Assembly (NCBI GenBank): GCA_973895155.1 | Contig: OZ316891.1 | Span: 29,990,331 to 30,054,330 of the forward strand | Origin: Marsupella aquatica | Lineage: Eukaryota > Plantae > Marchantiophyta | Direction of reading: 5' to 3' | Length of the DNA stretch: 64,000 nt | Shown: positions 5,495 to 64,000 of the stretch, piece by piece | Position numbering within the stretch: position 1 is the stretch's first letter | How the letters are laid out: each line of letters opens with the position of its first letter | Translations under genes and position numbers: made by a program | The notes under the pieces: generated by a model | The model's database searches: none | The model's input: only the letters and a program-made list of their open reading frames with translations | Told to the model about the DNA's origin: nothing

Positions 5495-5690
5495 AGTGAT
5501 AGAGTGGTCACAAGCTAGTGTCCACTATGTAATGACTTGTAGACCGTAGGAGGGTCAAGTTAATTTCCATGCATTTGTCTAAAGTAAGTGAGAGAACAAG
5601 GCTTGCATCAAATACTCTATGATCTTTCTTAGTTATTGAATGAACCCCAATTTAGACAAAATTGGACTTCTGGATAATTTCCAGATTTTA

Positions 5691-41600: not shown

Positions 41601-42399
41601 CCCAGTAAAGCACCATGTCTCGATAGAAAAAGGCTTGAGGCAATGATGAATGCGAAGATATCTCGAGGAAAAACCTTCAGAGAAGTCAAAGAAGATGTAA
41701 TTGATCATTGTAAAAGCATGCTCACATATAGTGATGAAAACGTTGAGAGAGTTTTAAAAGAGTATGAATTGAGTAACCTCCTCAGCCAGAATTGGATATA
41801 CTATTTCCCATCAAAGATGCCAGTTGGACCACTTAAAGGTTAGTCAGCCGAAACCATATACTTGATTAATTTTAATACATTCACTAACTTGATTGCACAA
41901 ATGAAATTTTGAAATCTGATTGTTGTTCCTCTGTTTCAGATGAGAAGTCTACTATCTTTGAAGATGAAATCAACACTGGAGAGTATGAATCAAGTGAGGA
42001 GGAGCCAAACGTTGCAGAAGAACCAGGGTCAGAATCTGAAAACCAAGACGATGATGAAGAACCAGGGTCAGAATCTGGAAACCAAGACGAGAGCTCAAAT
42101 GAGTCCATGAGTGCAGACAATCATTCAAAGAAGCGGAAGAATATGGGTGACAAAAGTGACATGGAGACTTTACAGCATAAGAGAAGTCAAAACAGGAGAC
42201 GAGTTGATACTCGTCAAAAGTATACAAAAAGGAAGCAGAAACCAACCAGCGGTACCGATGACTCCGAACAGGAGTTTGATGACAATTGGAGGGAGCGGCG
42301 GATGAAAGAAAAACAAGATCAAAAACAGCAAGCAGATGAGAAAGAGCAAAGGCAATTTACATACACTGAAGAAGGAGGAGGGGCGGATGAGGAGCAGGG

Positions 42400-42835
42400 A
42401 AAAACTAACCTGGATGGTGAAGGAGATGAAGATGGTGATCGTGATGAGAATGAAGGATATGGAGGTGGTGCAGGAGATGAGAATGAAGGAGATGGAGGTG
42501 GTGATGAGAAGGAAGGACATGGAGGTGATGATGAGAAAGAAGGACATGGAGGTGATGATGAGAAGGAAGGACATGGAGGTGGTGCAGGAGATGAGAATGA
42601 AGGACATGGAGGTGATGATGGGAAGGAAGGAGATGGAGGTGGTGATGAGAAGGAAGGACATGGAGGTGATGATGAGAAGGAAGGAGATGGAGGTGGTGCA
42701 GGAGATGGAGGTGGTGATGAGGAGCAGGGAAAAACAAAGCTGGATGGTGAAGGAGATGAAGATGGTGATGAGAAGCAAGGAGATGGAGGTGGTGATGACA
42801 AGGAAGGAGACCGAGGTAGTGATGACAAGGAGGAG
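42400..42835 (+). repeat. Coding low-complexity repeat (GGDDEKEGH-type)
   Basis: gatgagaaggaaggacatggaggt units in ORF 41909-43447. Confidence 0.9.
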
Positions 42836-43742
42836 AGCAACAAACAGAGCGATGGATACAAGGGGAAAAATGTAACAGAAGATGGAGAAAGAGAAGAAAA
42901 CTACTGGAACAAAGCCGGTGATAATGATATTGTGAAACTAAATATCCGGAATTATTTTCGATCAGTAGTAAGTCTTGAAGACACAACTCGGCCAGATAAC
43001 ATTTCGGTTGCAGACTGGGAAGTATACTTCCCCGATGAATTGAAACTTCATGCTTGGAATGGGAGACAATTTTGGACTACTGTTTTGAATGATATCTCAA
43101 CTCTAATAACACCTTCAGAGAGAAAAGAGTTCGAGAGAAATAAAATATTTATGGAAGAAGCTTGCTGTCGGATTGGAGAGCCCTCCATTAGCTTGATGGC
43201 CGAGGAGAATGCTTTAATTGACATGACCCGATGCGATCATGCTTGGGCAAAGTTGAATGAAGATACTTCTTCAGCTACAACCCATGGGCCGTCAGATGCG
43301 AGGTCAGATGGCAACGAAGGTGATCAGATGGAACCAAATTCTCTCAATGAAGAACAGGAAAATGAAATAGATGAAGCATACGCCAATGTTTTGCTCAATA
43401 TGCCACTACCTTTCCAAGGGCATAAGGTAAACTTTCTATTATCCTAAGTAGCCTTAATGTACTGTCTAGTTTTATTTCATCGCCTCTGGTTTATATTTTT
43501 GAGCTTATTCTAATATCAAATCACCTCATCATGCAACCAGGTAAAGGATGTTCCCACTTTCAGCAAGAGAATTTCTGCATCGGACAGAAATGGGATACAC
43601 ATCATAACTTTGTGATGAGATATATCAACTAAAAAAGCAGCTACTTCAAAGAGTAGAAATGGGGTCTTGCAAAAATTTAGTTTTGTTTGCATAGATTTTA
43701 TAAAACTATAATTCTCTCATTATTTTTTTTCTTGATGTACAG

Positions 43743-44330
43743 GTGAAAAAACTCATTATTCTTGATGTAAACAAAGTTATTTTGTTAAGTGTGTATTCTA
43801 CCAAACTACTTGACCAAAGTGCCGGAGTTCGGGTCAGGTCTAAGTTCATCTACAAGAGGCCGTATTTGCGCGAGGTTCTAGATTTTTGCAAAGCAAACTT
43901 CGACGTTGCAATTTGGTCCTGCATGCAATGGCACAATCTTAAGCCTATCCTTCAAACTGTATTGACTAGTGATGACAGAAAACAGTTAAAATTTATTGCT
44001 ACTCAACAGGACACAGTTCGAGTTGGCAACCATTTCAAAACCCAAAAACCAATTTTCTTGAAAGAGTTGAAAAATCTGCGTTCGAAACTAGAAAATGACT
44101 ATTATAGTGAAAACATTATACTCATTGATGACTCTCCTTACAAAACGTGCCTAAATCCATTTTACTCTTCTCTCTACCCTGAACCGTATTCTGGACAGAT
44201 AGCGGACAATTTTTTCCCCAACACTCTTATTCCATACCTCAAAACACTCCTGAACTCTTCCGAAACAATGCACAAAACCATACAAAACAAATATCCTACT
44301 TGGTCATTGTCTGCACTAGTTGAAGATTGA
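43743..44330 (+). CDS. NIF/FCP1-like (HAD) phosphatase domain exon
   Basis: KLIILDVNKVIL (degenerate DxD motif), KRPYLREVLDFC..NFDVAIWS, FLKEL, ENIILIDDSPYK; begins directly after a cag acceptor. Confidence 0.85.
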   Translation: MKKLIILDVNKVILLSVYSTKLLDQSAGVRVRSKFIYKRPYLREVLDFCKANFDVAIWSCMQWHNLKPILQTVLTSDDRKQLKFIATQQDTVRVGNHFKTQKPIFLKELKNLRSKLENDYYSENIILIDDSPYKTCLNPFYSSLYPEPYSGQIADNFFPNTLIPYLKTLLNSSETMHKTIQNKYPTWSLSALVED

Positions 44331-44551
44331 GAAGAAAATAGAATGATCTGGTCAACTAATGACACTGTGAGGTTAGAGAGTGACCCACATCACCTCAAAC
44401 AATTTAATGAGTACGCTGACGTTGTTTTTCAATAAATGTAAGGACTCTTTTTTTCTCATGCATATTTAATGTTAATGTTTTATTTAGTTTATTGCCTCTT
44501 TTGTTTTGTATTATTTAATGCTCAATTGCTGACATGTTTTGTGTTGTGCAG

Positions 44552-45175
44552 ATTATAAAATTTGTTTCTACCCGAAAATTACTTCTTTTCCATGTTGAAA
44601 GCATTCTCGTCTTCTCCGCTGGGTTCTCAAGGCATTTAAGAAATTCGACTGCCTTCTGCGTTAAGAAGAAAATGATCTTTCCTAGACCATTTGTTCAAGA
44701 GTTTTTAAACTTTTGCTCTGAAAACTTTGACATTGGATTTTGGTCCCGGAATCATACTGATTGGTATGAAGTGGCCGATCATGTTGATCCACTTCTCACT
44801 GAGAAGGCTCTTGAAAGTTTTAAGATACTATGGTGCCGACGAGACGACCTTAAGTCAAATCAGTGTGGAATGAATATCAAGATTGTTATGAAAGAAGCCC
44901 CTGGGTATTTATATGAAAATGTAGTACTCTTAGGAGAGGCAGCATCTATAAGTTTTGATTCTCCATATTATGCTGCACTTCATCCAAAACCCTTTTACGG
45001 TGATCTAGGTGACCAGTTTTTAGAAAACACTCTCATGCCCTATCTTCTAAGACTTGCTCACTCAAAGGTTAGTGCACATAGATTTATTAAATCCAACTAT
45101 CCATTGTGGTCAATGAGGCCTAGAGAAGAATTCCAAAAAAGTAGAGACATTAAGGTGTCTATTTACAAAGATTAA
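44552..45175 (+). CDS. Second, catalytically degenerate NIF/FCP1-like domain exon
   Basis: RPFVQEFLNFCSENFDIGFWS and ENVVLLGE...LHPKPFYGDLGDQFLENTLMPYL parallel the previous exon; the catalytic Asp is replaced (LLLFHVES). Confidence 0.75.
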   Translation: MIKFVSTRKLLLFHVESILVFSAGFSRHLRNSTAFCVKKKMIFPRPFVQEFLNFCSENFDIGFWSRNHTDWYEVADHVDPLLTEKALESFKILWCRRDDLKSNQCGMNIKIVMKEAPGYLYENVVLLGEAASISFDSPYYAALHPKPFYGDLGDQFLENTLMPYLLRLAHSKVSAHRFIKSNYPLWSMRPREEFQKSRDIKVSIYKD

Positions 45176-47821
45176 ATAGAGTTATTTAAATTTGGTTTTA
45201 GATTAAAGACTACGTTTCATATTGTCTGTGATACTACATTCACTATAATAAAAAGTGTGCAAGTTACATTATCTTTAAAGCTCTATCTTGAATTACTCTC
45301 TATTGCAAATGAATTTGATGTTTATGTTAAATTTTTCATTCCGAGTAAACCTCCATGTACTATGTACACTATATGTTCACAAACAGGATATTTTTTATTG
45401 CTACGCTCCATGGATTGTGAAAGTATTATCCTTGTGTATGGTTTAAAGAGAATCATATACCAAAAAAATACATGTATAATACAATCATAATTAAATATAA
45501 TATTAAATAATATACACTATGAATTCCGGACTTAATTAATTCTGGTTTTGTCTAAATTGGGGTTAATGGACTTTTTGATAATTATTGTTATTTTTGTCTT
45601 AGTACATATATTTCTAGAAAATGATGGCAGTTCTAAGTTACTTGGATGTCATCCTAGTTTGAATATAAGATATTTAACTTGTCTAGCATTTCATTGTTGC
45701 TTAGATAATGATCCTATCCAAGCTAGATGTTTTGAGTATAGATGCTATCCAAGCTTATGTGTTATTACACACGTTCTATCTATTTTCAACCAAATGAACA
45801 CTTTTTATCACCCAAATGTTTTTTTAATATTATCCAAATTAATATTTTCTTTGCCCAAATGTCTATTTTTTTGCTCCAAATTTATAATTCATGATGCTTA
45901 AATTTTCATTTTTCATCCTTCAAATTTACAATTCTTATGCCTAAAAGTGTGTTTTTAAATGCCCAAATTTCCAAATCTTCTTTATAATTCCACTTTTAAT
46001 GAATATAGTGATCTTCAAGCTCAGGGGTTTAAAGAAGAAGGGGTTGGCGCCTTCTACGTTCAAGCTTGGGGGTTTCACTTCCACAAAAATGGCATATCAC
46101 GTGCGACGAAGTATAGGGTCATTTTATTGGTTCAAAGGGAAGACTTAAGAATTTTATGAGACTGAAGAACAATAGGGTCTTTTAAATCCAATTATGAGAC
46201 TTATAAGAACATTACTAGGGGGTCCGAGGCCTAAAAACGTCGCAGGTGATGGGGAGGCATCCATATAGTGAGACCCCCATGCCTTCAAGCTTCCAATCGA
46301 TTGTGGCAAGAGCGGGGGTAAGAGTCTTTCGATCGGATCAAGGTAACAATGTAGTGAAGGTTTTCCTGGGGGTTTTTCTGTTTCGGATGCAAGTTACTTC
46401 CATATAGTGTATTGTTGCCCACTCCTATCGTTTAAATGTTGGATAGTAAGTCCAAGTCTATTCTGCTCTATAAATAGATAGAATGTGCGCCTGGCTCTTC
46501 AACGCCAATTCCATTTTGTATACCTCCGTGTCTCTCAGCGCTCATTACTGCCCCAAGATTGCAGACTGAGTGAACATCCTTTTCTTGGCTAAAGTAGTTC
46601 ACGTATGCTAAAGGAAGGCATTTAATATTAGCCACATGCTTCTACCATTGCAATTTTGTAATATTTCCGGTTGAGTCATTCTTATGGGATGGCTTTGTTC
46701 GGGGCTTTGTTTTAATTGATGTTCATTCTTGTCTCTTCTCTATAGGTGAAGCGCAAGGCTAGGCAAACATTTGCTAGGCTTGTTACACTAGCGGAACAAC
46801 AATTGGGGAGAAAGCAGTGGGGAAAGCAGTCGGTCAACTTTTAAGTGTTGGTGAGTATGCTTAACTTCTTGAAATCTGTACTAGGTCCTCGGATGAATAC
46901 CTTGTGTTAAATTTGCCTTATTCTTCAAGGACAGGATCCCACATGTCTTTTTGCAATTTACTAGCAACACGATTTCGGACCGAACGAGAACTATTTCCTC
47001 TAAACAAGAAGTGTATTTTTATTTTCCGCCGAATCTCGCGAAATCGGCAGTTTTTTTCATCAAAAACGCATTTTTGGGGAAATAATATAATTCGTATCGG
47101 AGTTCGGATTGAAACAACAAATTTAATAATGATCAAAACCAATGAAATTCATGCTAACAAACATTCATATTATCAAGGAACAATTAGATCCAAAAAACTT
47201 TCTCCTCGACCTCATATTCACGCTCTCCGAAGATATATGAAAGGTCTTATCTATAAATCCATATCCATGTTTCGAGCCAAGTGCGATAACTGTATCGAAC
47301 TCCGGATTTGAGCCATGAAAACTCCGACCCAATCTCAGGTTTCTCAGTTTTTGGATATTTACCAAAAATATTTTACATCACAGTCGATAAGAATTACTGC
47401 ACGGTTCGTCAAATTTACCTTGCAGTTACCTCCGCAATTGACCAGTTACCTCCGCAAGTGACCATAGTCAACATGCCATTCTTTCAACAGCAATGCGCAG
47501 TCCGATAAAATTATCGCGAAAACTACGGGCGACAAAAATACTAGTCGACAATACTAAGATCCTTCGGTTCATCGGTTAAATTTCAAAATTCCTATCCATA
47601 TGAAGAAAACTCTTCACAATACCAACATCAGATAAATTTATCGCTTCAATTTCAAAATTGCAACTTCCATATGAAGGAACCACTTTTGCAATACCAACAT
47701 CAGATAAATTTATCGCTTCAATTTCAAAACTATATAATTTTGCCACGATGCACGTATGAGAATGAAATTGGAAATCCAAGAAATATACCCTTTTCTGCTA
47801 TTTTGTCGTTTAGGGTGACAG

Positions 47822-47870
47822 CCAATCAAAAGTGGACACGTGGGCCAACCCCTCAACAGACACTATAAAA
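47822..47870 (+). promoter_or_regulatory. Putative promoter of transposase gene C (CCAAT, G-box CACGTG, TATAAAA)
   Basis: CCAAT 47822, CACGTG 47837, TATAAAA 47864; ~150 bp upstream of ATG 48015. Confidence 0.5.
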
Positions 47871-48014
47871 GGGCCACCGCCGATAAGTTTTTGGCGTCAT
47901 TATCGAGAGTAGAGTTTTGGGAGTTGTGTTCTTGGAGCAACATTCTGTCCGTTGAGCCTTTCGTTTTCCCTGATTGTGGGAGGAATGCAAAGCCCCATAG
48001 TGTCTCGGATAGCC

Positions 48015-51000
48015 ATGTCTCAATCAGACACAGATTCACCTTCCAGTTCAGTTGAATCCTCTCCTAATCTTGTCGCTCGCTGTTTGCCAAGTCGCATACT
48101 TAAAGCTCTACCTCTCTCACAGCAAATAGTGCCCAAAATCTCTGACTCAGATTCTGATGCAAGTTCTGGTCCTGAGCCCAGTGCTTACTATGTGTTGCCT
48201 AGTAAACCTGAGAAGCGTCGTCTCTTGAGCGTTCCATCGCCAAGAAATGAGAAACTTTCAATCCCAAGTTTACGTCCGAGACGTCGCTTCAGGCCATCCA
48301 TCCCGGGTTATGGAGAGGGTATCCGGCGACCGATACGCGTATCACAGTCGGCATTCAAGTCGCCACATTCAACACAAGTTCAACGACGGATCTTTCAGTC
48401 TCCGGGTGAGGATCGGGACACAGAAATACAAAGACCAATACGGCGATCGGTCTTTGCATTGCCTGGACTGGATGTGCGAGCAAGCGAGGGAATCGGACTG
48501 CGAAGTCCAGACTCGGTCCTTTCTCGAATGGTCCGTGGGAATCGTGGTGAACAAGTGCTCAATTTTCCAGCAGCTCGCAGAGTCGTTGGGACTGCACGTG
48601 CGAATCCAGAATCTCCAAGTTCTCAAGGGCGGACTGTCATTGGTTCCAGGCTCCAAGTATCGAGGAGAGGTCTTAATGGCGTTTGGGTTATGTATAGAGA
48701 GCCACGGAGTCCAATTGTGTTTTCAGATGAGTCGAGTGCATTGGAGGACGAAGATGAGGAAGGAGATAGAGAATCCGATATAATAGCACAAGTTGTGTCT
48801 GAATGTTTAGAAGGAGCTGTCGAAGAGAATAGCTATAGTCGTCTATTCAGTGGCCCTCTAAATGCGTCAAGAAGATCTATAGAGGATGGTAGCTCAGCAG
48901 AGAGTGATGCATCTATTCGCGAGGCACCTGAAGGACCCGAAAATGCCAATGTTATGAACGGATTTCAGGTTGTAGAGAAGTCAAATGAGCCTAGTAAAAA
49001 AGATAGGGACCGAATTACTAGGAAAGACAATGTGATAAATGACAAATTGAATAGAAACAAAATGAGAGAAATTCATAAGTATTCGTGTTGTGATAATTAC
49101 TGTCTGCAGAATTTGGGTCTGCTAGCCATGACGAAACAACGCACTTATTAAGTCTATGGGCTATCCTACCCAGAGAAGAACGTCCTTCTAAGAGGATGTG
49201 TGAAGGGTGGGCATGCTGGTGCAAGTGGTTACTCAGTTAGCGGTAGATCCTTTTGTCGAAGAAATTATTTTCACTGGGAAATAATCGTCTCCAAAAAATC
49301 TCGCAGAACATATTTTCTCGGATACAGATTGGTACAGTTTGTCGAGAAAAATCACCCGCATATCTTGGTCTCGTCCAATGGCTAGATGATTTTTTTTCCA
49401 CAAATGTCGAGAGTCTCCCCAACAATGATATCTTTCATTTACCTGACAATTGGACAAAAATAGAAGTTTTTGATGCCTTCCAGTCCGAAACTCTAATGCG
49501 CCAAGAACAAGGCATGACATATTCGTGGTTTGTTCGCATTTGGAACAAGGAGTTTCCTCGCGTGCGCATCCCCAAAAGGAGCCGTTTCTCCACCTGCGCC
49601 CCGTGTACTGAATTCAAAGCACTCCGTGACAAGGCAACACTCGAAGCAGAAAAGAGTAAATTTCTAAACCTGTGTGTTACTCCCGATAATTTTATCGGGT
49701 TGAGTATTCATGTGCTTCTTCTTTGGCCATGTGAGTGAATATATCGTTTGAACAGTTTGAATACTGAACCTGATAAATTTATCGTTGTCACAGTTTTTCA
49801 TTACGGTCTTGTGTTTGAATACTGAACCCGATAAATTTATCGTTGTCAGGGTTTATCATTACGGTCTCGTGTTTGAATACTGAACCCGATAAATTTATCG
49901 CTGTCAGGGTTCAATATTGCGGTTATCATGTTTTGTCCTAAATTTTTTTATTGTTGTAGGAAAATTCTCAACATTGCTAAACGAGCATCGGAAGGCACAA
50001 GCAGTCGAGAGGGAGAAGTTAGCAAAGCACCGGAGCAAATGTTACAAGAGTCCGGAGAAATATTTGGGCATCTGTATTGATGGAATGGATCAAAAGAAGA
50101 CAGAGTTACCTCATTTCATTCGGTGTCCGAAGAATATGGATGAAAAGTATTTCATCCCCGTACACATAGTGGGTTGTTTGATCTTCAACAAACAATTAAG
50201 TTCAAATGTTTTTTTGAACTATCCAAATATTCACAATGATAGCAACCTGACCATCCACGTTATCCAGCATATTCTGAATACCTGGGAAGGTCTGCTCCCT
50301 CCAGTGCTTTACCTCCAGCTTGATAACACAGCTCGGGAAAACAAGAATAAATATCTTATGGCATATTTGAATATGTTGGTGGAGATAGGTGTTTTCCAGA
50401 AAATAAAGGTTGGTTTCCTATTGGTGGGGCACACCCATGATCAAATTGATCAAATGTTTAGCAAGTTTTCTTCAAAATTGAACAAGCGGAAAGCTTTCCA
50501 GTTGGACACTCTTTCAGCAATCATAGAGGAATCCTACAATCCTACGACAAAGATATTTTTCGTCGACGAGGTTGCCGATTTCAAGAAATTTGTGTCAGAC
50601 AAGGATCAAGCAAATGACAAGGATATGGATGGTCAGGTTCTACGTACTCTCCACGGCATAAGTGCTCAAAAACAATTTTGGATTACTAGAGTACTCGAAG
50701 ATGGAAGTGCTCGGTCCGTAAATTCCATGCCAAACATCTTTCAACGACAATCGATTGGGGGGAGACGGTGGATTTTGTTCGGTACATTCCATCATCTGGA
50801 ATGTGGGTCGCACCACAAATGGCATTGAAGTCGGCCACGGGAGCGACAGGAGACAATGAAGAGCAAGAGAATGATGCTGAGGAACAAGATGAGCGGGCGG
50901 CTCAAAGTTATTTGTCAACTCTTCAAAAATATTGAAGAGCAATTGAAGATGGATTCAATTACTTTGACGACGCAGATCGTCTATGGTGGGGTCGTTTTTT

Positions 51001-51556
51001 TTACAAACAAAAAGAAGTGATTCAACACCACCTGAAACCTGCACAATGGAGTTTTGATTGGAGTTGGCCCAAGGTAAACGTACAGAGAGAACTTCCGAGT
51101 AATCCTACGGAAGCAGCAATGGAACCTAGCTTGGTTGATAAAGTAGCGGGTGTGAGGACAGTCATGTATTCCGGAAGTCGAAGAAAAGTCACGGAAATTG
51201 GAGACTTCAAGGATCTAGAGGTGAATACTAAATTTGCAATGATATGTGTAGTAGCCCATCAGGATCCCAAGGGAAGACCATTCTGGATGGCAAAAGTGAT
51301 TGAGATTCTCACAAGAATTAACGACATCCCGGAGCGGATTAAAATCACTTGGTATGCAATGGATTCGGAGGAAGAGTCTGCAATTGAAGGCAAATATTAT
51401 CCGGAGAAAGAGGCTTCGTCTAGCAAAGTACTGGAGGATGAATTGTCCCTATCAGAAACTGCCGTTTATGCGTATAACTTTGCGTTATTGGCAAATAGTA
51501 CTCTCCCTACAAACAAGATGAATCATTCAAAATGCAATGGAGACTGTAGTCATTGA
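48015..51556 (+). pseudogene. Sola-like DDD transposase gene C, one intron (49656-49959), several stops/frameshifts
   Basis: Ser/Arg-rich N-terminus, then CCDNYC, FSTCAPC, ICIDGMD, YLQLDNTARENKN, FLLVGHTHDQID and a C-terminal PFWMAKV..ITWY; split across ORFs 47952, 49253, 49917 and 51017. Confidence 0.88.
49755..49912. repeat. ~58-bp intronic tandem repeat x3, each carrying (C/T)GATAAATTTATCG
   Basis: gtttgaatactgaacccgataaatttatcg recurs with palindrome starts at 49771, 49829 and 49887. Confidence 0.9.
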
Positions 51557-52010
51557 TAGTCGAAGCTAGTTTCAGGTTTAAGTTATAATGGTTATCGTTC
51601 CCATGAATATGTACAGTGGTTATCGTTCTAGGACTATGTACTCCGAAGCTATAATGATATCTTTTTTTTTAAATAATTGCAATGACAAACCAGTTAGAGA
51701 ATACAATGCTGCCCAATAAGATTATCGACAACTCCATTCCCCCAGCAGGAACACCGCGATAGTCCGATATATGCAAAGTCCGATAAATTTATCGCATTAA
51801 TAAATGTGACAAAGGTTCTTCCTCATGGAATATAGAAGTCGATAAATTTATCGACAACTTCATTGGTGATTGACATTATCCTAACGAGCACACGCAACTA
51901 ATCTAATAACATGTCGTTGAGATCATCCTCATTTGGTGTTCTGGGAGGCTCTTCCTCAGTTTCTTCTTGTTCCTCTTCGGTCTTGTAGATAGGCAGTAAT
52001 TCCAAAGTCA

Positions 52011-55000
52011 TGAAGAAAACCGGAAAATTTTTAAATTTTTGAAGTAGTTAAACTATATTTGCTGATAACTCGAGTAAACTAAACTCTGCCGAAGATTAAG
52101 AGTTTAAGAGTTGAAGAGTTGAAGTGTTTAAGAGTTTACGGGTTTACGAGTAAACCCTACTTTAATAGTTTAAGAGTTTAAGAGTTGAAGAGTTGAAGTG
52201 TTTAATAGTTTAAGAGTTTAAGGGTTTACGAGTAAACCCTACTTTAAGACTTTACGACTTTAAGAGTTGCGACTTGCGAACTGGCGAGCCCCGCGATTGT
52301 GACAGGCTACGGCTAACTCCAACGGGACTTTGCAACAAAACGAGGAGCAGGCCTTGAAAGGGAAGGAATGCAAGACATAGGCGCTCACTCCTGACTTCTC
52401 TTCCGCTGCATCTTTCATCGCTCTCGACTCCAAACAATTCTTCACGTAGCTCAGTGAGCAGAATTTGAGCTATGGCTGACTTGAACGCTGATGCACAGTA
52501 TCGTGTTCAAACTCTGGCAATTCCTAAGAGTGTGGTCGCTCGAATTCCTTTGGCGCCCGACAGTTGTGAAAATTTGAGAACATCGTTATAGCAGCTCGGA
52601 TTGGAACATCTACTCGCAATCCCTTGGAATGTGGAGCTCGACTCTTATTTACAGGATTTTGTGAGAGGATCACTGATTGCCCCTGAATTTCGACAAACCA
52701 TTCGAGCTCGGCCAAGTTTATGGACAGTTGAGCAAGTAGCTCATGCCTTCCGCTGCCCCTTAGATGGAGAAGGATTATATTCAAAGAAAAAAGATTTGTC
52801 CACTCCTTACTTTTCAGGGATTCGCCATCCTACCAATGGCTGGAATGTGACACAATGTACCTATCCGGATTTGAGGATTCTTTTAGAATTTCTAGTGCCC
52901 ATTCTCCATCCGAAGAGACCAACTATCTGCCCTGTGGCATTGGCGAATACTATCGTAGCTTCTCACAGTGGAGCTATTCAAGTAAATTGGGCGTTGTTAC
53001 TTTTCAATGTGATGCACGATCAGGTGAGAAGTATGAAGGCAGGCAGACCTACTTGTCTACAAGTCTATCTATCTCAGCTGTATCAAGCACATGACTGTTT
53101 ACATCCGGAGGAGAAAACAGAAAGGGGATTACTTCTGATCGAGTTGGACATTGAGGAAGAAATTAGTGTAGCAGAATCAGAACAGGACATTCTGCTGAAT
53201 TCCACTGATCAGGATGTTAATATGGAGGATGTCTCGATAGATGGTTCGGAATTTCCCCCTGAACACAACATGGAGGTCATTTTATACTCTCCAAGAGAAA
53301 TCAGTGGAACAGATCGACTTGAAGCTGAAGGAGACGAGATTTTTCCTGAGCAACAAGAAGTCGTTGTTGAACCAACTATTACTGCCATACGAGGAGTCAC
53401 CATGCCCCCTTTTTCGAAAGCAGAGTCAAATCAGCAGCTTATTGATAAGTTAATCTCTCTCTTCGGTTGCAGTGATGTTGAACTCTACGATGTTGTCTGT
53501 GATTTGAGATCCGAGGCAGTTAGCTTATCCTCTCCATTTCCAGATCAGCTAACCCCTGTCAGGACCGCTTCTCCCATTGAGAGGTCAGCACCAGAAGAAT
53601 TTGTTGCTCTCACTCCTACTGTCCCACAGAATCTACCTCCAGAGCCAAGTGAACCTGTCTCAAGGATAGGAAACACAAGTTGTGTTGCAATTGTAACTGA
53701 CCTACTGGAATTGCTTCAGTGTGAACCTGAGGAGATAATCTCTGTGGTTAGTGACTTAATTCCGAAGTACACAGAATTCAAAGGCCCTTCCAACCCGGGT
53801 GACTGCATTTATAGTCCAGATTCCAATTATGAGCCAACCGAGGGACCTATTTATACCCAACCACAATATGAACATCCTTCTGTTAGACAGGATCTTCCTG
53901 AGGATTCTGATCCACCCTCTGATTTTGATTCCATCCGATCTTATGACAACTCTGTCGAGTCGTCACCAAGGCAAGGATTTGAGGATGTTGACACTACCTT
54001 AAGATCTGATCCAAATTTAGTGGCAGTTGTCACCTCCTCTACTCAAACACCCCGGTATTCTGTCATTGAGAAAAGATATACACGACATCCAGAGTCTCAA
54101 GTGCAGAGGTACGTGGAGACTTGTAAGATAATGCAGGCCAACAGACCCCCAATTGGAGAGTTTTGGAGATACTACTACCTTAAGAAGACTGAGGCCAGTT
54201 ACATATTTGACCTCAGAAGTTTCGGAACTTCAAGAGTGGAGATGGCTCAATTTGATGAGTTCTGGGCTGACTCAATCTACTTCCGACCCATCCTTGCTAT
54301 GATGCTACTTCAAGGGGATGTAGAAGTAGAAGATCCAGATTTGGTTTTGGCCTATTTCGGGAATTTTGCAGCTTACGCTCTGGACTTTGTGATTTCTTTT
54401 CTCATGCAGAGTAAGAAATCCACTTCTCACCAGAACTCTTACATCCCACGAGAGCCGAAGGTTGTCCTTGTTTCCACCAGTTCCCTAGCTGAGAAACAGA
54501 GGATCTGGAATAATGTCACTACTCAGACCCTGGCTCATTTCAACCGATATTTTAAGGATGTCAGATGGAGACTTCGACCCTTCTATTCCAGGATGATGAG
54601 TAGTGATGAGTTCCTGTTTCATTATCCTCAAGTGTATGCTGCCACCTGCAACAACTATGATGTACTAGGGATGTACAGAGAAGCTCTTCGTATAGATTCC
54701 TGTTATTTGATGAAGAGAATGCCTTTGATGTATCCTGAGAGACAACTAAGGTGCCTACCCTACTCTCGAGGATCACCACGTCAGACTAAGCTGATGGAGG
54801 TAACACAGAATCGGACTGTCACCTACGTGGAGCTGCTCGAACCCGATGATATTCGACAACAAGCTTGAAGGAGACTATCTTTTTAGCTAGTATTGAAAAG
54901 TATAGTACTTTTACCAATTTTTCTAAATGTGTTGTAGAGCTTTAAAAGCTATGAGACTTCTTTAGGCTGTAGTCTGTACCTAGGAAACCCTGCTGGAAAA

Positions 55001-56590
55001 ATTTCAGAGTTTTCCGAACCAGGAGTAGAAAGTTAAAAATAGTTGAATCTACTCAATTTTTAGTATACCGAAATTAAGAGTTTAAGAGTTTAAGTTTTTA
55101 CGTTTTTAAGAGTTTAAGTTTTTAAGAGTTTAAGAGTTCATACTTAGCCATTTTTTCCGGCTTTCCACTTATTGAATCGTCGTTTTGACTTTTTGAGGGT
55201 TATGAAGAGGCATGTCTCTTCGACCCTGTGACCTCTTATTCTGTAGTTCATCACTATTTATACCTCTTCCCCTAGTGTAGAGAGATGGTTAAGTTTTGCA
55301 GTTTTGCCTCTCCCTTGTGTTAAACTAGTTGATCATGAATCTATGAGTTCGAGATCAGGTTTAACATTTGGAGAGACTTACCTCCTTCTTGTATTTTGGA
55401 ACCCAAATACTTGAAGTAAAACCTCAGTTATGAATCTCGTGAATTATAATGTCAGATTCCGCTTTGGTGACACATTGTAATCTCACAAGTTCTTAGAGTT
55501 AACTCATTGAGTTTAAGTTACATTGGAAATGATGTTTTCACCTTCATGTTGCTTAGTACCATCTAAATGCTGAAGTATTTATCCTTTTAGATCTTGACTA
55601 AGTATCACTTAGGAAGAAAGGTCAAGACATGTTGCCGGCATTTTAAAAGGATACTCTAGTATGCAGTTTAGATCTGAAAAGCCGTGTGGATTTGGATTTC
55701 CTTAAAGTCATTCCATTATTACTTATGTCTAAGGAGTAACCTTGGTCTATTCCAGACTCCCTTAAGCATACTCTGAGAGATTTTTCCTTGTGTTTTGTTA
55801 ATTGCAATCTTTTGCTTAATTGAAGGTTATCTGATGTTGAGTTATCATCAAAAACTACTCACCGCTGTGGAGCGATCTTCAAAGTACCTGATTAAAGTAG
55901 TCAAGATTGATTACTATGTGTGACACAAGAGCTTAAGGCTTTATTTTTAGTTTATTTCATCAAACCAACCCAATCTTGTTCTTAACGGGAACGAATACCG
56001 AGTTTAGAGACGTAAAAGAGTTCTTTTGATTCTCTATAGCAAACTACATGAGATTTTTGGCGCCGCTGCCGGGGAACAAATCAAGGATGGTTTGAAGTAC
56101 AGGCAGTGAATGCCAAAAGGAGGTTAATTCAGTGAATCTGGAATAAACAAAAGAAAGGTGGAAGTTGACCATGGAACCCCAAGGAGAATGGGAGTTCCCT
56201 CCATTACAAATTCGATCTTTCACAATGGAAAATGCACCAGAGGCATTTAGGGAGAGATTTGGAGGTGAAACTCCTCCCTCAATTTTGGAAAGAAAGAGAA
56301 AAGCTAAAGCCAAGAAGGAAAGACGAAATGGGGCTTAGTGGGGGAATATCCTTCCCAAGAAAGAGATGGTGAGGAAAAGCAGACCTCAGAAAAGAGAAAG
56401 AGCCTTGATTAGGTCAAGGGATAATCAAACACACACGATTATCAGTGCCACTGCAAGAGAGAGAACAACTATTTTGAGAAGGCAGGTGTCCAACATCAGA
56501 GGAGGAAGCTACTTTTGGGGTGGCGAATTGGTGAAGGTTGACTCCTGGGACACCAATATTTTGTATGATTGTGTATTTGTATGCAATCGC
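52011..56590 (+). mobile_element. Truncated Gypsy (Athila/Tat-like) LTR-retrotransposon-derived insert; boundaries approximate
   Basis: PBS-like TGGCGCCGCTGCCGGGGA at ~56058-56075, shortly after ...AACTACA. ttaagag-type repeats at 52095-52265 and 55074-55140. The segment lacks the host element palindrome. Confidence 0.65.
52472..54868 (+). pseudogene. Retroelement-type accessory ORF (plant-mobile-domain-like N-terminus), one premature stop
   Basis: ATG 52472, in-frame TAG 52589, then 755 open codons. The N-terminus (IRARPSLWT...LLEFLVPILHPKRPT...NTIVAS..VNWA..YLSQLY) resembles, from memory, repetitive bryophyte TE proteins. Confidence 0.6.
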
Positions 56591-56663
56591 TTAGAAACCA
56601 ACAAAGGAATGCTAAAGCCGATAAAAATCTTGCGATAGAGCATGCTGTGAGAGGAATGCTTAC

Positions 56664-58865
56664 CGCGTCACTCAATTTCTCCGCCCATATGCCAAGGACC
56701 GAGACATTTGTTTCGTTGGGAAACATTTCTCTACATGTTGCCCAATCTGGCCTACCAGATATCTGCAAAAATAGTTTCTTCACCTTGGCAAGCTTTTTCA
56801 ACTTCTCACCTTCCTTGTGCATTTGATCCAAAGTGATCACCTTCCCGATAACCCTATTCAAGAGACGCTTGACATGCTCCTTATTTGACAGTCCTTGGAG
56901 ACCTCGAAATGAATTTAAGTTGAGGTCACCAGCAAGTTTATTCATTTTAATCTCCCTTACCGTCAAAGGTTTCACCTTTCCCTTTGCGTTCGTCGTTGCC
57001 ACAATTTTTTTGGGTTGTCCTAAGACAATACCTTTCTCCCGCATCTGGAAAATCTGCTCCTGAAGATCCCAAATTTCACCTGTTTGGAAAGCAATTTGGA
57101 AAGCCGGATCATGTTTGGCCATGGAGTCACGAACTCCTGGCGTGTACTCCATCATGCATTCTTGACAACATGCTTCGCGGACATCTTTAGTCGAGCCCAC
57201 ACCCATTTCAAGGAAAATATTGTGACAAGCGCGAACTTGGTCAATTTTAGTCATGTTCTTCCGATACTCCTGGTCATAGTTATGCTGGAAGCCTAACTTT
57301 CGGACCTCGGATCTCGTAAGCCCAGCGTAAACCCAAGCTTCCAGCTCACCATATATTTGCTTCCCGTACATTTTAAACAACTCAGACTTTGCCCGAGCAC
57401 CATGATTCCCTCCAATAATTCTATACTTCCATACCCTTGACTTCAGGATGTCCCAATCTGCGGTTGTGGGACAATCCTTCGGATCCACACACAGCACGAA
57501 CGGGGCACTGAAGTTGGTGGGGTTTTTCATGAGAAGTATCTTGATATTTTCCACATGCAATCTATCCACTGGTCTAATCAAAGTTGTCAAATCCCCCTCC
57601 TCATCAAATATGAGATTGTCGACATGCAGAAGCACAGTTGTCCTTTGCACCCTTCATTGCATCAGAAGACTGAGCTCTGCCTTGATCGCGTCCGTCTCAT
57701 ACATCGAAAGAGCCGTCTCCTCCTCCTGATCAGCCTACAAAAGCGTTGCAAATTCAATTAAGGAAAGAAACTGCGAGATTTTTATCGGAGTTCGCATTTG
57801 TTCAACATAACTCCACAATCCGCAATTCAGGAAATAAATAGCGAGATTTTTATCGGATTTCGTGTTTGTTAAACAGTACAACGACGTAGTACTTACCAAT
57901 GGCGTCGTAGGAACCGCGACTGGAACTGATGGAATTGACGGAGCTCTATCTACTTCTGCAGCCACCGTCTCAGTCCAGCCAGTCCTCTTCCTCTTTGTGC
58001 TAAGTCCAGAACCAGATGGCCCGGATCCCTCGGATCCTTTACTTTCGCTTGGTTTAACGGATGGTCCTTGATGGTTGCCCCGGCCTCTCCCACTACCGCC
58101 AGTTTCCTGGCTCTTCTTCCCACCGTCAGAGGTTCCCGCGGCATCTCCCTTGCCGCTACCTCTCCCTTTCCCTTTTCCACTTCCCGAAACCCGACCAGAA
58201 GTTGTAGGTTCGTCCACGTCAATATGTGTAGAGGATTGCAATGGTTCTTTCCGCCCCAATATTTTATCGGCATTAGAACCACCGCTTCCACTTGAACCTG
58301 GTTTCTTGAAAACAATTTTGCGGACAGGTTTGAACTCTTCACCCACAAGTCTCTTGTACTCTGCGTTCACCCTTGGAAGCATGATGGCATCACAATCTTG
58401 CACATACTGGCCGATCCAAGCCGAACCCATAACATTCATCTCTCTTGCTGCCCGAACATCGGCAACAAGGGGATCTTCTGGATAACTGTCCATCGATTTC
58501 TCATCAAAGTTATCGAGAGTAACAATGAGAGATGTGAAACCCTTGCGCCCACACATTGTCAAGAAACTAAGGCCCTCTGTCAACACTTTTCCCTCCCCGT
58601 GGCCAACCATGAACTCGACAACGGCAACAGCAATGACAGGGCCATACGAAACATTAACCTTTGCCGATTTTTGCAACTGGACCCAAAGGATTGGGGTAAC
58701 ACAGTCTTCGAAACCCGTGGACTGTAATCTGGCGTCACGGAAGTACCATGACTTCTTGATACACTTGATCTCTTCACAAATGTCTTCACTTGTCCAAATT
58801 GCATTGGTGAGGCTTGTCATGAGACTTTCTGCCTCAGCAGATCCACTCTTTCCACTAGCAGCCAT
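56664..58865 (-). pseudogene. ParB/Srx-like domain gene of the 15-kb element; 3' part lost at the retro insert
   Basis: Exon 1 58865-57897, intron 57896-57735, exon 2 57734-56664 with in-frame TGA at 57654-57656. Motif LHVDNL...IRPVDRLHVENIK...PFVLCVD...YRIIGGNHGARAK...LGFQHN. Confidence 0.75.
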
Positions 58866-59088
58866 GGAAAAGTCTGCAAATAAACAAATTCCAATGCAAA
58901 GAGCGATAAAATTATCGCCGCCAATCTCACAGCACATCTGGACACGACATCTCATCACACAAGGACAAAGAGACCGATAAAATTATCGCAAAAGTGAGCC
59001 TTCTTTAAATTGACGGCCGAGTGTACAGGTCGAAGAATCAGCTACGGAACCCTAAATCCAAAACCTTAAGGTTCCCTAAACCTAAACC

Positions 59089-59802
59089 CTAATCATAGTT
59101 GAACCTCGCCAGAGCGAAGCGTTCGATCCGCTTCTTGGGCCATTGGGGAATATGAGTGACGCAATGATCATAAGCCCACAGCCAATGGAAATCAACTTCA
59201 CCAGTCTCAGGATTCACTACTGCTACTGAATACCGGCGTGACGGAATGTCACGACAAGCATGTGTGCAACATGGACAGATCTCACCATTGGCAAGGACGT
59301 TCGTCCACAGGCAACTTACATAGATCAAGTTAAAGAGCCCACAGACCGGCTGGGGGGGGAGTTGACGAATCTTGTATGAATATAGTTTCCCACCAGTGTC
59401 AATAAAAAACTCGGTGGCAAGAGGATTGTCCAGCTCGTCAATCATATCCTGAATCTCATCGAATGCTCTACGTCTGTTGTCGGCATAGAATTCTGGCTCA
59501 TAAGCAGGATTGCCCTTCACAACATGACAATAGTGGAGTATAAAATGTCTTACTGCACCGGTTTTCAGAAAGAGTAGGATAACTCTTCTAGAAAATCCAA
59601 CATATCTATCCCACCGAATATAAATTTCTCCCCCTACCTGATCTACGTAGAAGTGAAATGCGTTATGGTAAAACAGTTTTACTACCAGCCTGCATATCTT
59701 TAAAATTAGTGACTCATCCAGCCTCCTTAGCTGGTCCAGCATGGCTCCATTCCCCCATTCTGGAGGATCCGGGAAGGGTACAAAAATGCGTCGCTCAAGC
59801 AT
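59089..59802 (-). CDS. Cargo ORF of unknown function (237 aa; C-terminal CPCC..C...DHC)
   Basis: Intact ATG-to-stop ORF with protein-like composition, inside the TIR-bounded element. Confidence 0.55.
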   Translation of the reverse strand: MLERRIFVPFPDPPEWGNGAMLDQLRRLDESLILKICRLVVKLFYHNAFHFYVDQVGGEIYIRWDRYVGFSRRVILLFLKTGAVRHFILHYCHVVKGNPAYEPEFYADNRRRAFDEIQDMIDELDNPLATEFFIDTGGKLYSYKIRQLPPQPVCGLFNLIYVSCLWTNVLANGEICPCCTHACRDIPSRRYSVAVVNPETGEVDFHWLWAYDHCVTHIPQWPKKRIERFALARFNYD

Positions 59803-60094
59803 GGCCTGATCACCGAATAGAAATCAGGAATAAATTTTGGAGAACATACTAATTACAATTCTACAAGTTTCATCCAACTTTACAGTACCTTGTATAACGG
59901 GCTGTGAAGCCAATGCACTTGTCAGCTAATCGTCCGAAGAGGCGCAAAAAAATACACTCTGGACCACACAACTCGAAGTCAGGGGAGGCAGAGTCAATTA
60001 TATTCAAAGTGTTTCTTTACAAGCACCCAAAATCGACTAGAGGAATGAGGAGTGCGATAAATTTATCGGATGTTCGCTGCAATGCCTCATCCAC

Positions 60095-60646
60095 TCAGAC
60101 TCGTCCATGCCATGCAAGAATTGTCCGCTTCCCGCTTTCTCCAAGATTCACCCAAACTCTAAGAAACGCATCTAATCGGTCATACGAGAAGCACCCAAGC
60201 ATATCTATGGGAGGGAGGAAATGAGTTTCCTCTCGGAAGACCCTAGCAATATGTAGGTCAAATGAGAGAAGGACGGCATTAGGAATGCTTGCGAGCATTT
60301 TGTTGATGTCATTGATCTCACGGACTGCATATTTCAATAGCGCCCAAAATCATGTACCAACAACAAGATGGTTCCATTTCTTCGAGGTGGCTCCAAGACA
60401 AATGATTGTTCTCATTCGAGTCAGTCGTTCTTCTAGTAGAAGTTTTAGGTCAAGGCCAAGGTGTTCATCTTGTGTGCAAGACAAGGCTAGGAGGGGCCAA
60501 ATGTGAGATTCAACGAGTTCATCGGGAAGTCCATTCAACAAACTTCCGCATTCCACACCGGGCACTTTTCCTCGAATATATTTCCTACGCTCGTGGGCTA
60601 AAACGGATCCCATCTTTGCAATGATTAGATTCTCCGATGCAGCCAT
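60095..60646 (-). pseudogene. F-box-like cargo gene with an in-frame stop
   Basis: LLNGLPDELVESHIWPLL...CLGATSKKWNHLVVGT*FW fits the F-box pattern; TGA at 60350-60352 is in frame with ORF 60095-60337. Confidence 0.55.
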
Positions 60647-61778
60647 GAAGCAGAGCTACCAAAACCACCAATAAAAATACCTTCAATCACCAGGTGTAAC
60701 CAAACACAGTACCAACCCTGCACGACAGTTTAACGATTAGGACTCGTGACGTATTATATTCGCTGCGCAAGGGTAGGACTTGTTTATTTAAATATGTCCT
60801 TCCAAGATGCGCCTCAATGAAAAGGTCGAAACACTCATCGTGAAAGGTTCACCCAAGGGTCTTCGTTCCAAATCTTACAACAGAAGTGAGCCTGTTTGTG
60901 GTACTTGTTATCAAGACGACGACAACAATAGTTACAAGAAAACTCCAAAGAATGTAAACACGCCGTTAACATCAACCTCGAACGAATTGGAACTCGTGCA
61001 TCATTCATTCCGCAGAATTCAATGCGGAGAGGATTCTGCCTATCTCCAGGATCAGTACCACCCATCCACAATGCTCCTATACCGATGGGGAGAACTTTGA
61101 GTCGCACGAGTCTCTTGTACAACCGGCGTGCACGTTTGACACGATTTTCAAGGAAGACAGCCATTTGTCACAATACCTGTTGTCCACGGAGTGCAATCGA
61201 CCTTCCGTTGTGCCTCCTGAACCCGGCAACACTGCGACATCAGAGATGAAGATGAGTCTCCAAACAAAACAAAGGAAAATGATTCTCACAGGAGGATGCG
61301 ATAAGTTTATCGCACTCCACATTCGAATTGAAAATATGACTTCCTCAAACACCTAAGCCCTGAATTCAATCTTTCACAAAAATGACAACTCCGATAAATT
61401 TATCGGATTCTCAATTACTCCTCTTTCCATGAAAGGAATGGAGACTCCGATAAATTTATCGGAATGAAGGCAACACCTCTCTAAACACATTGGATCAAAT
61501 GATTGCAACAGAGGAATGCAAAATGCGATAAATTTATCGCAGTCCGCTCGGATCTGGATATTTTACACTAAATGACTAGTTAGTCTTACATGGAGAACTT
61601 GAACAGGAATGGCTGTTCCGATAAATTTATCGGGTTTTCGGTAGAAAGAGTCAAATCGCTTGGGAGGAATGTAAGACTTGATGGGAGTTTGGTATTCGCT
61701 CTCAGTCAGGAGATATTTGCTCTGGCGAAAGCAAACATTTTATGGGCAGCCTGCTCCTCTTTATATAGGAGACGCTCT

Positions 61779-61841
61779 AAACCATGGTTAATTTCCCCTT
61801 AACCATGGTTAATTTCCCCTTAACCATGGTTAAGTTCCCCT
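61779..61841. repeat. 21-bp subterminal repeat x3 carrying palindrome TTAACCATGGTTAA, next to a minus-strand TATA (61760-61767)
   Basis: Directly visible. Confidence 0.85.
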
Positions 61842-63342
61842 TTTACCTGGGTTAGTGCATGGTCGTTCCTGGATTACGCGGTTCGGACCAAGTTACTCGC
61901 AGTTCGGACTTTTTCACTGACGGAATGTAAAACCCGATGCACGTATCGCTCCCTGCATTCCCGCGGCGATGCAATGGAGGAAAGTGGCGTTTCAGAGAGT
62001 TTTTGCCAGTTTTATCGGTCATTGCATTGCCTTAGAAAAAAAACGGGATCGGGCTAAACGAGAACTCCGACACACTTCTCGGTCGGTCCGAAATCGTGTT
62101 TAGCACACGTCGGGATTGGAGTTGCGCTTATAGCAGTGACCCAAACAGCGACAGAGAATACTCTGAGGGACTGAGGGTGTGTCAATCAGCGCCAACAAAT
62201 CATAGTGAGTTTATCTAGATTTCCAAAATGCTGACTGGTTTCTGGTGAAGTTCCTATCACGCCCTCCAGTCTGAAACAGAGCGCGGGAGCAGAGCAGATT
62301 AGAGCAGAGCAGAGCAGAGAGTGGAAAGCTCCAAAGTCTAGTAGTTTAGTTGGGACACAACCCATACAGTGCTATTTCTCTTGTTGTCATGCATGGTGGA
62401 GCGGTACCTCTTGTTCTGCTCTCTCCTCCTCCACTCTGTCTCTGTGAGCGCTTGCTTTGGTCGGGGCTTTGATGCGTCTTTTGATTTAACTACCTTCGTG
62501 GGTTGAAGCATTTTGTTGAAGCTCCGCGCATCAATGTCAGCTATGTTAAATTTATGCTTTGTAAGGTCAAGTTGTTCGCACCTAGGTCAAAGCTCTCGCG
62601 CGAAGAAATTCTAGCTTTAGCTTGCTACTACATTTGGTAAAGCTTAGCTTTAAAACTCTATCTGTGCTTGGGCTTTTCGAGCAGTCGGTGATCATTGAAT
62701 TTGATGTACTGAAGTTTTGGGAATTATGGCTCCTGTAGTTAGCTTGACCTATCATTCATTTTGTTGTAACAGGTTTGGAGGTGGGCCAAGGCCGGGGCTC
62801 AACGCTTGTCTACTAGTATCGTATTTGGCCGCGGGGTTACATCACTCAGATAAGGTGACACATCATTTTGCATATTAATTGTTTCTCCTTCTCAGCTATT
62901 TTATGATATGATTTGCGACTACTCTCATCTACTTTGTAATTGCCAATGCAGTCCTGTAGTGTCATTCCGAGTCTCGTTTCTTTTATTGAATGGATTTGTT
63001 TGTCTTCTCCGCAGGTGAAGTGCAAGGGCTGCCCGGAAAGTGTGAGTTGTCTTGAAAGTTTAGGCACATTCAGGTCCGGGATTCAGGTTCTTGGCGTCAA
63101 TTGTCGTGACTGTGAGTAGAAGTCCCAGTAGAAGTCAATCTATAAGCAATATGTCACGTGAGACAAAGGTCAATGCCATATGGACCCTTTCTGTGCAAGT
63201 CATAGGGGCATTTGTGTGCTCTGCAGTCAGATTGTGTACTGAAAATTTACTGTGGACTCTGTTGGGTTTGCTTAGCCAACTATTTTGATTTTTGCATGAA
63301 ATTTTGGAGCGATTCATCGCTCTTGCGCGTCCACCCCTAGAG

Positions 63343-63600
63343 ATGGCTGATGTTGGGGGTACAGAGGCCCCTCATCCTGACATTGTTGGTCATGAAGCTT
63401 TGCCTCTGCACAAGACTTCTACGCCGTTAGTTTCCCGTTATTATGCAGTGTCTAGAGGCCGTAGGCCAGGCATATATGAATGTCACGAAGCCGTTGACAA
63501 ACAAGTCCTAGGTTTTAGTGGGAATAGTCATGGGTCATTTAAGACTAGAGCACAAGCGGAGGATTGGCTAAAGACACAGATCTTGGCCGGGTTGGCATAA
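63343..63600 (+). CDS. Small protein consisting of an RNase H1 N-terminal hybrid-binding (Cauli_VI-type) domain
   Basis: YYAVSRGRRPGIY...QVLGFSGNSHGSFKTRAQAEDWL matches the YYAV.xGR.PGIY.W..C..QV.G.....KSF.T..EA consensus; stop follows with no catalytic domain. Confidence 0.8.
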   Translation: MADVGGTEAPHPDIVGHEALPLHKTSTPLVSRYYAVSRGRRPGIYECHEAVDKQVLGFSGNSHGSFKTRAQAEDWLKTQILAGLA

Positions 63601-64000
63601 TTGTCAATGTAAGACTTGAGTTCATTTGAATATGAGACAAATTTGGAATTGCAGGTGATGCTGTGTGTTTGGAATAGCAGGCTAAAATTTGCGTACAATG
63701 TCTCCAATCTTGACTGGATTGACTTGGACTGTGTCATATCAACAGTCACTTTATCAATGAATCCTGGTTGTCCAAACGTCTTCCACCTGGATCAGGCAGA
63801 TACAGTTGTTCTGGATGATTTTGTCCAGACCCAAAAATAATTTGGGTAAGCTCTAAAATTGTTTTCTGATGAATGATATTCATTGATTGATTGCAGGGCA
63901 ATCGAGTTGATGTACAAGCGAGTACGTACTATAACTATCTATCGTCTTCAATTCATATGCATGTGGAGAGGTTATAGATAGCATTTCATGTACATCTTTA

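Follow-up and report, generated by a model that had tools for sequence, protein, structure and literature searches.

A disabled Sola1-like transposon in Marsupella aquatica and the predicted ParB-methyltransferase with which its family may mark itself

In this article, I will discuss a giant DNA transposon at positions 46966-62100 (15,135 bases) of a 64-kb window, by which I mean the whole stretch of Marsupella aquatica contig OZ316891.1 that was analysed and in which all coordinates are given. Between its terminal inverted repeats (TIRs) lie a Sola-like DDD transposase gene on the plus strand, a truncated retroelement, the remains of a three-exon minus-strand gene joining a ParB-like domain to a predicted DNA methyltransferase, and three smaller minus-strand genes. 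The initial annotation had placed the transposase first with a convergent block of minus-strand genes behind it, a gene order borne out by the layout of the open reading frames (ORFs); the multi-gene cargo block it described is also present, and what it lacked were the methyltransferase, the dead state of this copy and a short palindrome dispersed through the element. The reading that I favour, with confidence somewhat above even, is that the element is a disabled member of a multi-copy Sola1-like family, whose ParB-methyltransferase would mark the family's own palindromes against silencing.

The element, its ends and its copies

The TIRs, located by an inverted-pair search and comparison of the ends, occupy 46966-46997 (plus strand, starting AACAC) and 62069-62100 (minus strand, ending GTGTT); their 32-nt arms are 88% complementary, identical over the outermost 18 bases, and the longest among 133 inverted pairs between 44 and 64 kb, and no third full-match copy of the TIR start occurs within the window. 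A target-site duplication (TSD), TAGC, follows directly on either side (46962-46965 and 62101-62104). Contigs of four public runs (two studies; X1-X4) were compared with positions 45000-64000, leaving out runs X5 and X7 for thin or partial coverage of that stretch, and in all four a joint runs from 46961 to 62101, skipping 15,139 bases and keeping a single TAGC. The full delimitation that had been proposed for the element is thereby confirmed from TIRs, TSD and empty site alike. A 5-bp TSD, TAGCA, fits the empty site equally well but breaks the symmetry of the TIRs and was rejected. The search for an empty site, which had been suggested as a check, thus found its joint in every run, with the qualification that the X3 contig differs at 33 of about 310 letters (about 10%) so that at least this contig stands for a paralog of the repeated flank without the element and does not prove an allele; the X1 joint, with a depth of 48 against 56 for a nearby unique contig, may be an allele. 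The target itself is repeated DNA (45634-46965 and 62101-64000, with a very high-copy stretch near 46216), and its right flank holds an RNase H1 N-terminal (Cauli_VI) ORF at 63343-63600.

Contigs of each of the four runs cover all 30 bins of the compared stretch, and single-contig depth in the ParB exon is 510 (X1) and 866 (X3) against 56 and 52 at 45000-45570; contigs 9 to 17 times deeper are a rough sign that suggests many copies. In addition, two of the four runs (X2 and X4) contain a joint from 47890 to 61283, that is, an internally deleted, non-autonomous derivative of about 1.7 kb.

The transposase gene (47985-51570, plus strand) was recognised from its frames, its motifs and a match to DUF7869 (Pfam, E 9.3e-51), and its DGMD, LQLDN and GHTHDQID motifs, whose aspartates I take to be the DDD catalytic triad, align with those of two other DUF7869 transposases in the window. 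These two further Sola-like genes stand tail to tail at 2735-5494 and 6266-9326, the first as a single 919-codon open frame. A predicted intron at about 49656-49959 contains four of the palindromes discussed below. The gene is broken by stops at 49149 and 50933 and by frameshifts near 49315, 50720 and 51507, and since the lesions at 49151, 50720 and 51507 are absent from nearly all other contigs at those positions, these three are specific to this copy. Judged from its reading frames, then, this copy is dead, its transposase disabled by stops and frameshifts.

Sola elements are described as having a DDD transposase, a 4-bp TSD and TIRs of 11-1124 bp (PMC10741241), and the DDD-type motifs, TAGC duplication and 32-nt TIRs found here agree with that description. 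The AACAC termini also resemble the AACCG termini of Sola1-1_Ec32, whose best match is a Physcomitrella Sola1 (PMC12477816), and the transposase likely belongs to the Sola1 subgroup. The earlier view of a cargo-carrying plant DNA transposon, Sola-like and driven by a DDD transposase, is therefore supported by the DUF7869 match, motifs, TIRs, TSD and empty site together.

A three-exon gene and its missing methyltransferase

On the opposite strand, a 406-aa ORF, the ORF previously called ParB-like and a short tail at 51984-51898 are exons of one gene, the first two joined by a GT..AG intron. Exon 1 (57897-58865) encodes an N-terminal domain of unknown fold followed by a low-complexity linker; it had no match in a Pfam search and is 31-32% identical to the same exon in three related loci, L001, L002 and L005. 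These belong to a set of five loci (L001-L005) drawn from a metagenome scan, two of which (L004 and L005) end inside exon 2, so that only L001-L003 reach past it. The predicted intron 1 (57735-57896) carries two variant palindromes at 57774 and 57842. Exon 2 (56664-57734), interrupted by one in-frame stop at 57654-57656, encodes a ParB/Srx-fold domain and a helical region and has 19 homologs at 46-80% identity. Pfam returned no match for it, a sequence search of the PDB gave weak matches only (Spo0J, E 0.069), and in viral contigs none of 65 pattern matches was confirmed as a relative. Its structural model (predicted local distance difference test, pLDDT, 61) has as its top four fold matches among 48,161 chains ParB/Srx proteins only: PadC (Z 7.8), KorB (6.7), Pnob8 ParB-N (6.3) and sulfiredoxin (5.4), at middling Z and with 86-178 residues aligned at a root-mean-square deviation of 3.1-5.1. 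The ParB fold suspected by the initial annotation thus stands, while the separate gene does not, this being the second of three exons. The ParB motif reads GGNHG and lacks what I take to be the arginine of the CTPase motif.

Behind exon 2 the gene is cut short. Intron 2 survives only as 56581-56663, beyond which lies a truncated long terminal repeat (LTR) retroelement (51985-56580, plus strand), identified from its LTR-like ends and from contig joints. Its putative LTR of 4.06 kb would run from TGTAG at 51985 to CTACA at 56048 and contains an ORF of about 800 codons (52472-54868) with one stop and no Pfam match; a motif at 56058-56075 is presumably a primer-binding site, and the internal stub is about 0.5 kb long with no 3' LTR. 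Other contigs join 52404 to 54539, and since these copies skip the sequence between, long and short LTR forms coexist. One contig, X3-16, follows 56069-56580 and then diverges; X1 contigs have a loose end before 56581 and run from there into other intron-like sequence, and in X3 a 66-bp repeat joint marks the 56581 boundary. No contig among the rows shown joins straight across the insert, which leads to the deletion reading: an LTR retroelement would have landed close to the end of exon 3, and a single deletion afterwards would have taken out most of it along with about 1.3 kb of exon 3 and intron 2. These two events would account for the absent 3' part of the retroelement as well as for the 1.3 kb lost from its host. 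The methyltransferase exon would accordingly be gone from this copy, which is why it was missed at first. The earlier figure of 10.5 kb without the insert agrees with the 10,539 bases left; it is not the full length of the element because of the roughly 1.3 kb apparently lost under the insert, and by comparison with L001 an intact element would measure about 11.8 kb.

What remains of exon 3 is an acidic tail of about 28 codons (51898-51984), assigned by profile match, position and similarity of its end: it is the best match to the exon-3 profile among 2003 window segments, albeit a weak one, ends like homologs P0046 and P0050, and lies about 330 bases from the transposase end, a position relative to the transposase that is the same in L003. 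In the relatives the exon is plain to see. All three loci long enough to contain it (L001-L003) have a third exon above the Pfam cut-off for N6_N4_Mtase (PF01555), and in L003 the C-terminus of a convergent transposase (54% identity over 165 aa) follows about 350 bases behind it, with 17 residues of a transposase tail at the contig end in L002 and none before the contig ends in L001. This core cargo gene keeps the same place and orientation in relatives that are only 50-56% identical.

Exon 3 has 28 homologs, 26 of which carry D[IVL]P[YF] (the other two are fragments without that region), followed by NPYQKP and DLCCGTG, that is, motif IV before motif I in the beta order. Its model has a pLDDT of only 44, and its closest folds are CcrM, M.MboIIa and M.BceJIV (Z 8.4-8.6), all of the top 11 rows being amino-methyltransferases. 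In the Atlas it falls with phage N6_N4 methylases (0.94), and the best match in a PDB sequence search is N4CMT, weakly (E 0.013); in prokaryote genomes none of 49 pattern matches was confirmed as a relative. From motifs and model together, the relatives' exon 3 is a predicted beta-class N6-adenine/N4-cytosine (N6A/N4C) DNA methyltransferase, and an intact ParB-methyltransferase would be about 1,050 aa long. Among bacterial enzymes, DPPY is the signature of N6A and SPPY that of N4C methylation, domain structure being no proof of product (PMC8885841); because D-x-P-Y resembles DPPY, the predicted mark is probably N6-methyladenine (6mA), with N4-methylcytosine (4mC) also possible. The accessory protein may alternatively bind the palindromes with a catalytically dead methyltransferase domain that serves as scaffold or decoy, as proposed for the DIRS1 methylases, which have been called likely inactive (PMC4738411), and the non-canonical DIPY/DVPY and DLCCGTG motifs, along with distant homologs that have DMP or DVP and other residues behind, are in keeping with this. 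However, the D, P and aromatic residue of motif IV, the QKP and the glycine-rich S-adenosylmethionine motif are kept in homologs down to about 50% identity, and three distant homologs (P0167, P0174 and P0191) have the canonical DPPY, and I consider a dead scaffold distinctly unlikely. Synonymous sites are saturated while dN is 0.16-0.30, a pattern that I count in favour of the main reading, and at such saturation dN/dS has no usable value.

Palindromes, CpG retention and a self-marking reading

The element is studded with a 14-bp palindrome, CGATAAATTTATCG, with 18 copies at no more than two mismatches in 10,539 element bases against a mean of 0.07 and a maximum of 1 in 200 resamplings. At up to three mismatches, all 22 matches of the window fall inside the element and none in the retroelement insert; its coding DNA, 66% of the element by present annotation, contains none. 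The motif scan finds a left cluster of five CGATAAWWTTATCG-type palindromes with the transposase promoter region (47284-47894), three palindromes between the two convergent 3' ends (51714-51853) and a right cluster of five (61299-61632). The related loci have motifs of their own: L002 contains 20 CGAT-N6-ATCG sites, and L001, L003 and L005 hold a different palindrome in 10, 8 and 3 copies, respectively, with none in L004. The palindromes of the element and of these four loci all fit CGA-N8-TCG. Family-specific motifs confined to the non-coding DNA of an element are a feature of the VANC type, whose target motifs sit in introns and intergenic DNA (PMC5735166).

Also, with the motifs masked, the observed/expected (O/E) ratio of CpG is 0.81 in the element against 0.50 elsewhere in the window (p 2.4e-5, from 10 versus 51 blocks of 1 kb that are not independent of one another). 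It is 0.77-0.86 in four of the five related loci, whereas both of the other DUF7869 genes in the window are depleted of CpG, with ratios of 0.37 and 0.55.

The mechanism that I would propose begins with the DDD transposase, which would move the element by cut-and-paste. The accessory protein, as a dimer, would bind the family's CGA-N8-TCG palindromes through its ParB-like half, and the methyltransferase half would methylate nearby bases, writing 6mA or 4mC, a mark that would keep the transposase and cargo promoters open or keep 5-methylcytosine (5mC) off. By analogy, the module is best read as a self-marking, VANC-like anti-silencing system, not as host cargo of the Starship kind.

The palindromes could instead be binding sites of the transposase itself, for end synapsis and self-activation, with the ParB-methyltransferase as an active or passive passenger that has another target. 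Their clustering near both ends and survival in the 1.7-kb derivative are what transposase sites would show, and transposases have been reported to act as sequence-specific activators of their cognate copies (10.64898/2026.08.24.746577). However, 12 of the 22 sites are intronic or intergenic and kilobases away from the element ends, the TIR itself is not a palindrome copy, and the two other DUF7869 transposase regions of the window have no such palindrome; on this evidence I regard transposase sites as unlikely.

Several observations weigh against self-marking, beginning with the end-clustered palindromes just described. The methyltransferase exon has not been seen directly in copies from the same species, and the tail match in the window has an E-value of 0.067. 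DIPY is not the canonical DPPY or SPPY, and because of this and of a GGNHG motif presumably short of the CTPase arginine, either domain may be inactive. The CpG O/E of L004 is only 0.57, and youth, horizontal arrival or coding constraint could also be behind the high CpG content. Furthermore, the window copy is losing CpGs: 9 of the 19 copy-specific C>T or G>A changes listed (in 26 rows of copy-specific changes, picked from the best-supported rows only) fall at CG against a background of 19%, so protection in trans is at least incomplete.

Other cargo, kindred systems and spread

The smaller genes upstream of exon 1 bear on whether the element is a Starship- or Pack-like vehicle whose captured, variable cargo is kept for the benefit of the host. 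Nearest to exon 1, a 237-aa open frame (59089-59802, minus strand) was listed by the initial annotation as a cargo gene and, with two homologs at 66-67% identity, is a real conserved gene by sequence comparison, for which Pfam gave no match and the Atlas no usable one. Next comes a gene of about 180 codons (60101-60646, minus strand) with an in-frame stop near 60351; its F-box-like label is a resemblance by eye that Pfam does not support, neither half giving an F-box match at E<=10. A 109-aa Cys-rich ORF (60835-61164, minus strand), earlier only a possible gene, has a counterpart upstream of exon 1 in L005 (28% identity, pairwise E 4e-07) and no Pfam match. In this copy, stops or frameshifts interrupt the transposase and two of the cargo genes. 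The F-box-like gene and its 237-aa neighbour are missing from the interval between the small ORF and exon 1 of L005; this part of the cargo is therefore variable, as a host-benefit vehicle would have it. Against this, core cargo and orientation do not vary among relatives at 50-56% identity, the element's motif recurs in introns and promoters of the cargo genes, and no cargo gene matches a known host function, and I find such a vehicle very improbable. Fungal Starships have a tyrosine-recombinase captain, are far larger and carry variable, host-adaptive cargo; they resemble the present element in having the mobiliser as first gene with several further genes behind it, whereas the element has a DUF7869 DDD transposase in place of such a captain, TIRs, a TSD and a fixed accessory gene. 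The Starship analogy drawn at the outset is thus a weak one, the main cargo being an accessory gene that holds its place and orientation across its relatives.

Much closer is Sola1-1_Ec32 of Ectocarpus, a 21.5-kb element whose opposite-strand gene encodes a ParB-like domain and an N4C/N6A methyltransferase and for which self-modification was proposed (PMC12477816). Both are giant elements, Sola1 there and probably Sola1 here, with a 4-bp TSD, termini starting AAC, nested insertions and an opposite-strand gene with a ParB-like domain, and the protein has 1104 aa there against an expected 1,050 or so here; the methyltransferase domain is in the same gene in Sola1-1_Ec32 and in all three informative relatives, and only its tail is left in the window copy. 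This likeness is one of described domain architecture. The two differ in length (about 12 kb for the window family), in TIRs (32 against 282 bp), in TSD (TAGC against a bias to end in A), in host (land-plant type against brown alga) and in the three further small genes found here, and dispersed family-specific palindromes with CpG retention receive no mention for Sola1-1_Ec32 in the available part of PMC12477816. Similarly, the Plavaka accessory genes PAG2 and PAG3 of the red alga Bostrychia are PF01555 methylase and ParB-like genes, with inverted-repeat arrays proposed as ParB sites for self-modification (10.1101/2025.02.11.637652). Their carriers are again giant DNA transposons with a PF01555 methylase, a ParB-like protein and repeat arrays; there, however, the transposase is of the EnSpm/Plavaka type, the methylase is fused to SET and the ParB to a 2-oxoglutarate (2OG) oxygenase in two genes, and the repeats lie beside PAG3, whereas the palindromes here run through introns and intergenic DNA.

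The VANDAL/VANC system of Arabidopsis is alike in its short element-specific motifs, often tandem, in intron, intergenic and terminal non-coding DNA, and in motifs that differ between related families as the palindromes of the related loci do (PMC5735166). It differs in being Mutator-like, in a VANC protein that is not a methyltransferase, in motifs that are not palindromes, and in a function that has been shown, that of the present module being only predicted. Marchantia MpDN4MT1, which has TSPPY, and bdelloid rotifer N4CMT are, like the relatives' exon 3, eukaryotic beta-class amino-methyltransferases (10.1101/2021.02.12.428880, PMC8885841); they are host genes with (T)SPPY and 4mC, whereas the window family has D-x-P-Y, a ParB-fold partner and a transposon as carrier. 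In the available part of Iyer 2016 no such methyltransferase clade is listed, and de Mendoza 2018 describes C5 enzymes in retrotransposons. A literature search found no land-plant Sola with a ParB-methyltransferase, subscription papers and bioRxiv supplements, which may bear on novelty, being outside its scope. The architecture itself is already in print with Sola1-1_Ec32, and the window family is a new land-plant member of it with a concrete candidate site.

Beyond the element, the window holds further features of interest. A second, distant ParB-like multi-exon gene (39036-45175) has a GGQH motif, matches the distant-fusion profile at E 0.0016, and looks like a degenerate methylase in its last exon (by eye, with no score); two NIF/FCP1-like phosphatase ORFs come after it. 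The arms of a perfect 19-bp inverted repeat lie 40 kb apart (5643-5661 and 45546-45564, E 0.013), the right one where unique depth stops; the pair may be chance, or may mark the limits of a very large element with the NIF and ParB-like genes inside. Pieces of a CACTA/Plavaka-like transposase lie on the minus strand at 11872-15715 (Transposase_21 at E 0.0073, below the cut-off), and a 27-bp inverted repeat (18480-18506 and 21758-21784, 3.3 kb apart) may mark a small TIR element.

The exon-2 profile finds 348 representatives at E<=0.001; of 146 examined, 19 have a match to the exon-3 profile as well (E<1e-4), and PF01555 is matched by 9 of the 38 long ones. Among 20 proteins looked up, the named clusters come from Chara (2), Riccia (3), Adiantum (2), Ginkgo, Holothuria, Ptychodera and Clastostelium. 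A 38-row tree, rooted at its midpoint and with several long branches, places the window protein together with L001 and L002 (10 rows, 100/100) in a clade without any named species, and a 27-row group (96/96) includes this clade and all named green-plant rows. In P0066, a single protein from Chara, the ParB-methylase unit occurs twice in tandem.

Self-modification of giant DNA transposons by ParB and methylase was put forward in two recent algal genome papers, and the window family extends this architecture to land-plant-type genomes. It also supplies material for a test: CGA-N8-TCG as a candidate site whose core is specific to each family, several families that differ in their sites, catalytic motifs that are conserved, and CpG retention as a footprint that can be measured. 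Fusion proteins in Chara, Riccia, Adiantum, Ginkgo and marine invertebrate annotations have so far gone unexplained, and because related fusions occur in all of these, the module may be a widespread and overlooked source of a non-5mC mark. A bolder version, in which a ParB-reader with an active 6mA/4mC writer has been carried by transposons of green plants from Chara to Ginkgo for a long time, co-evolving with a parS-like 14-bp palindrome in each family and blocking 5mC silencing, I would put forward only tentatively and with more doubt than belief. If true, no transposon before it would have been shown to put a non-5mC DNA mark on itself; plant genomes would have in it a source of 6mA and 4mC that has gone unrecognised, and its families would offer a natural collection of methylases that can be retargeted.

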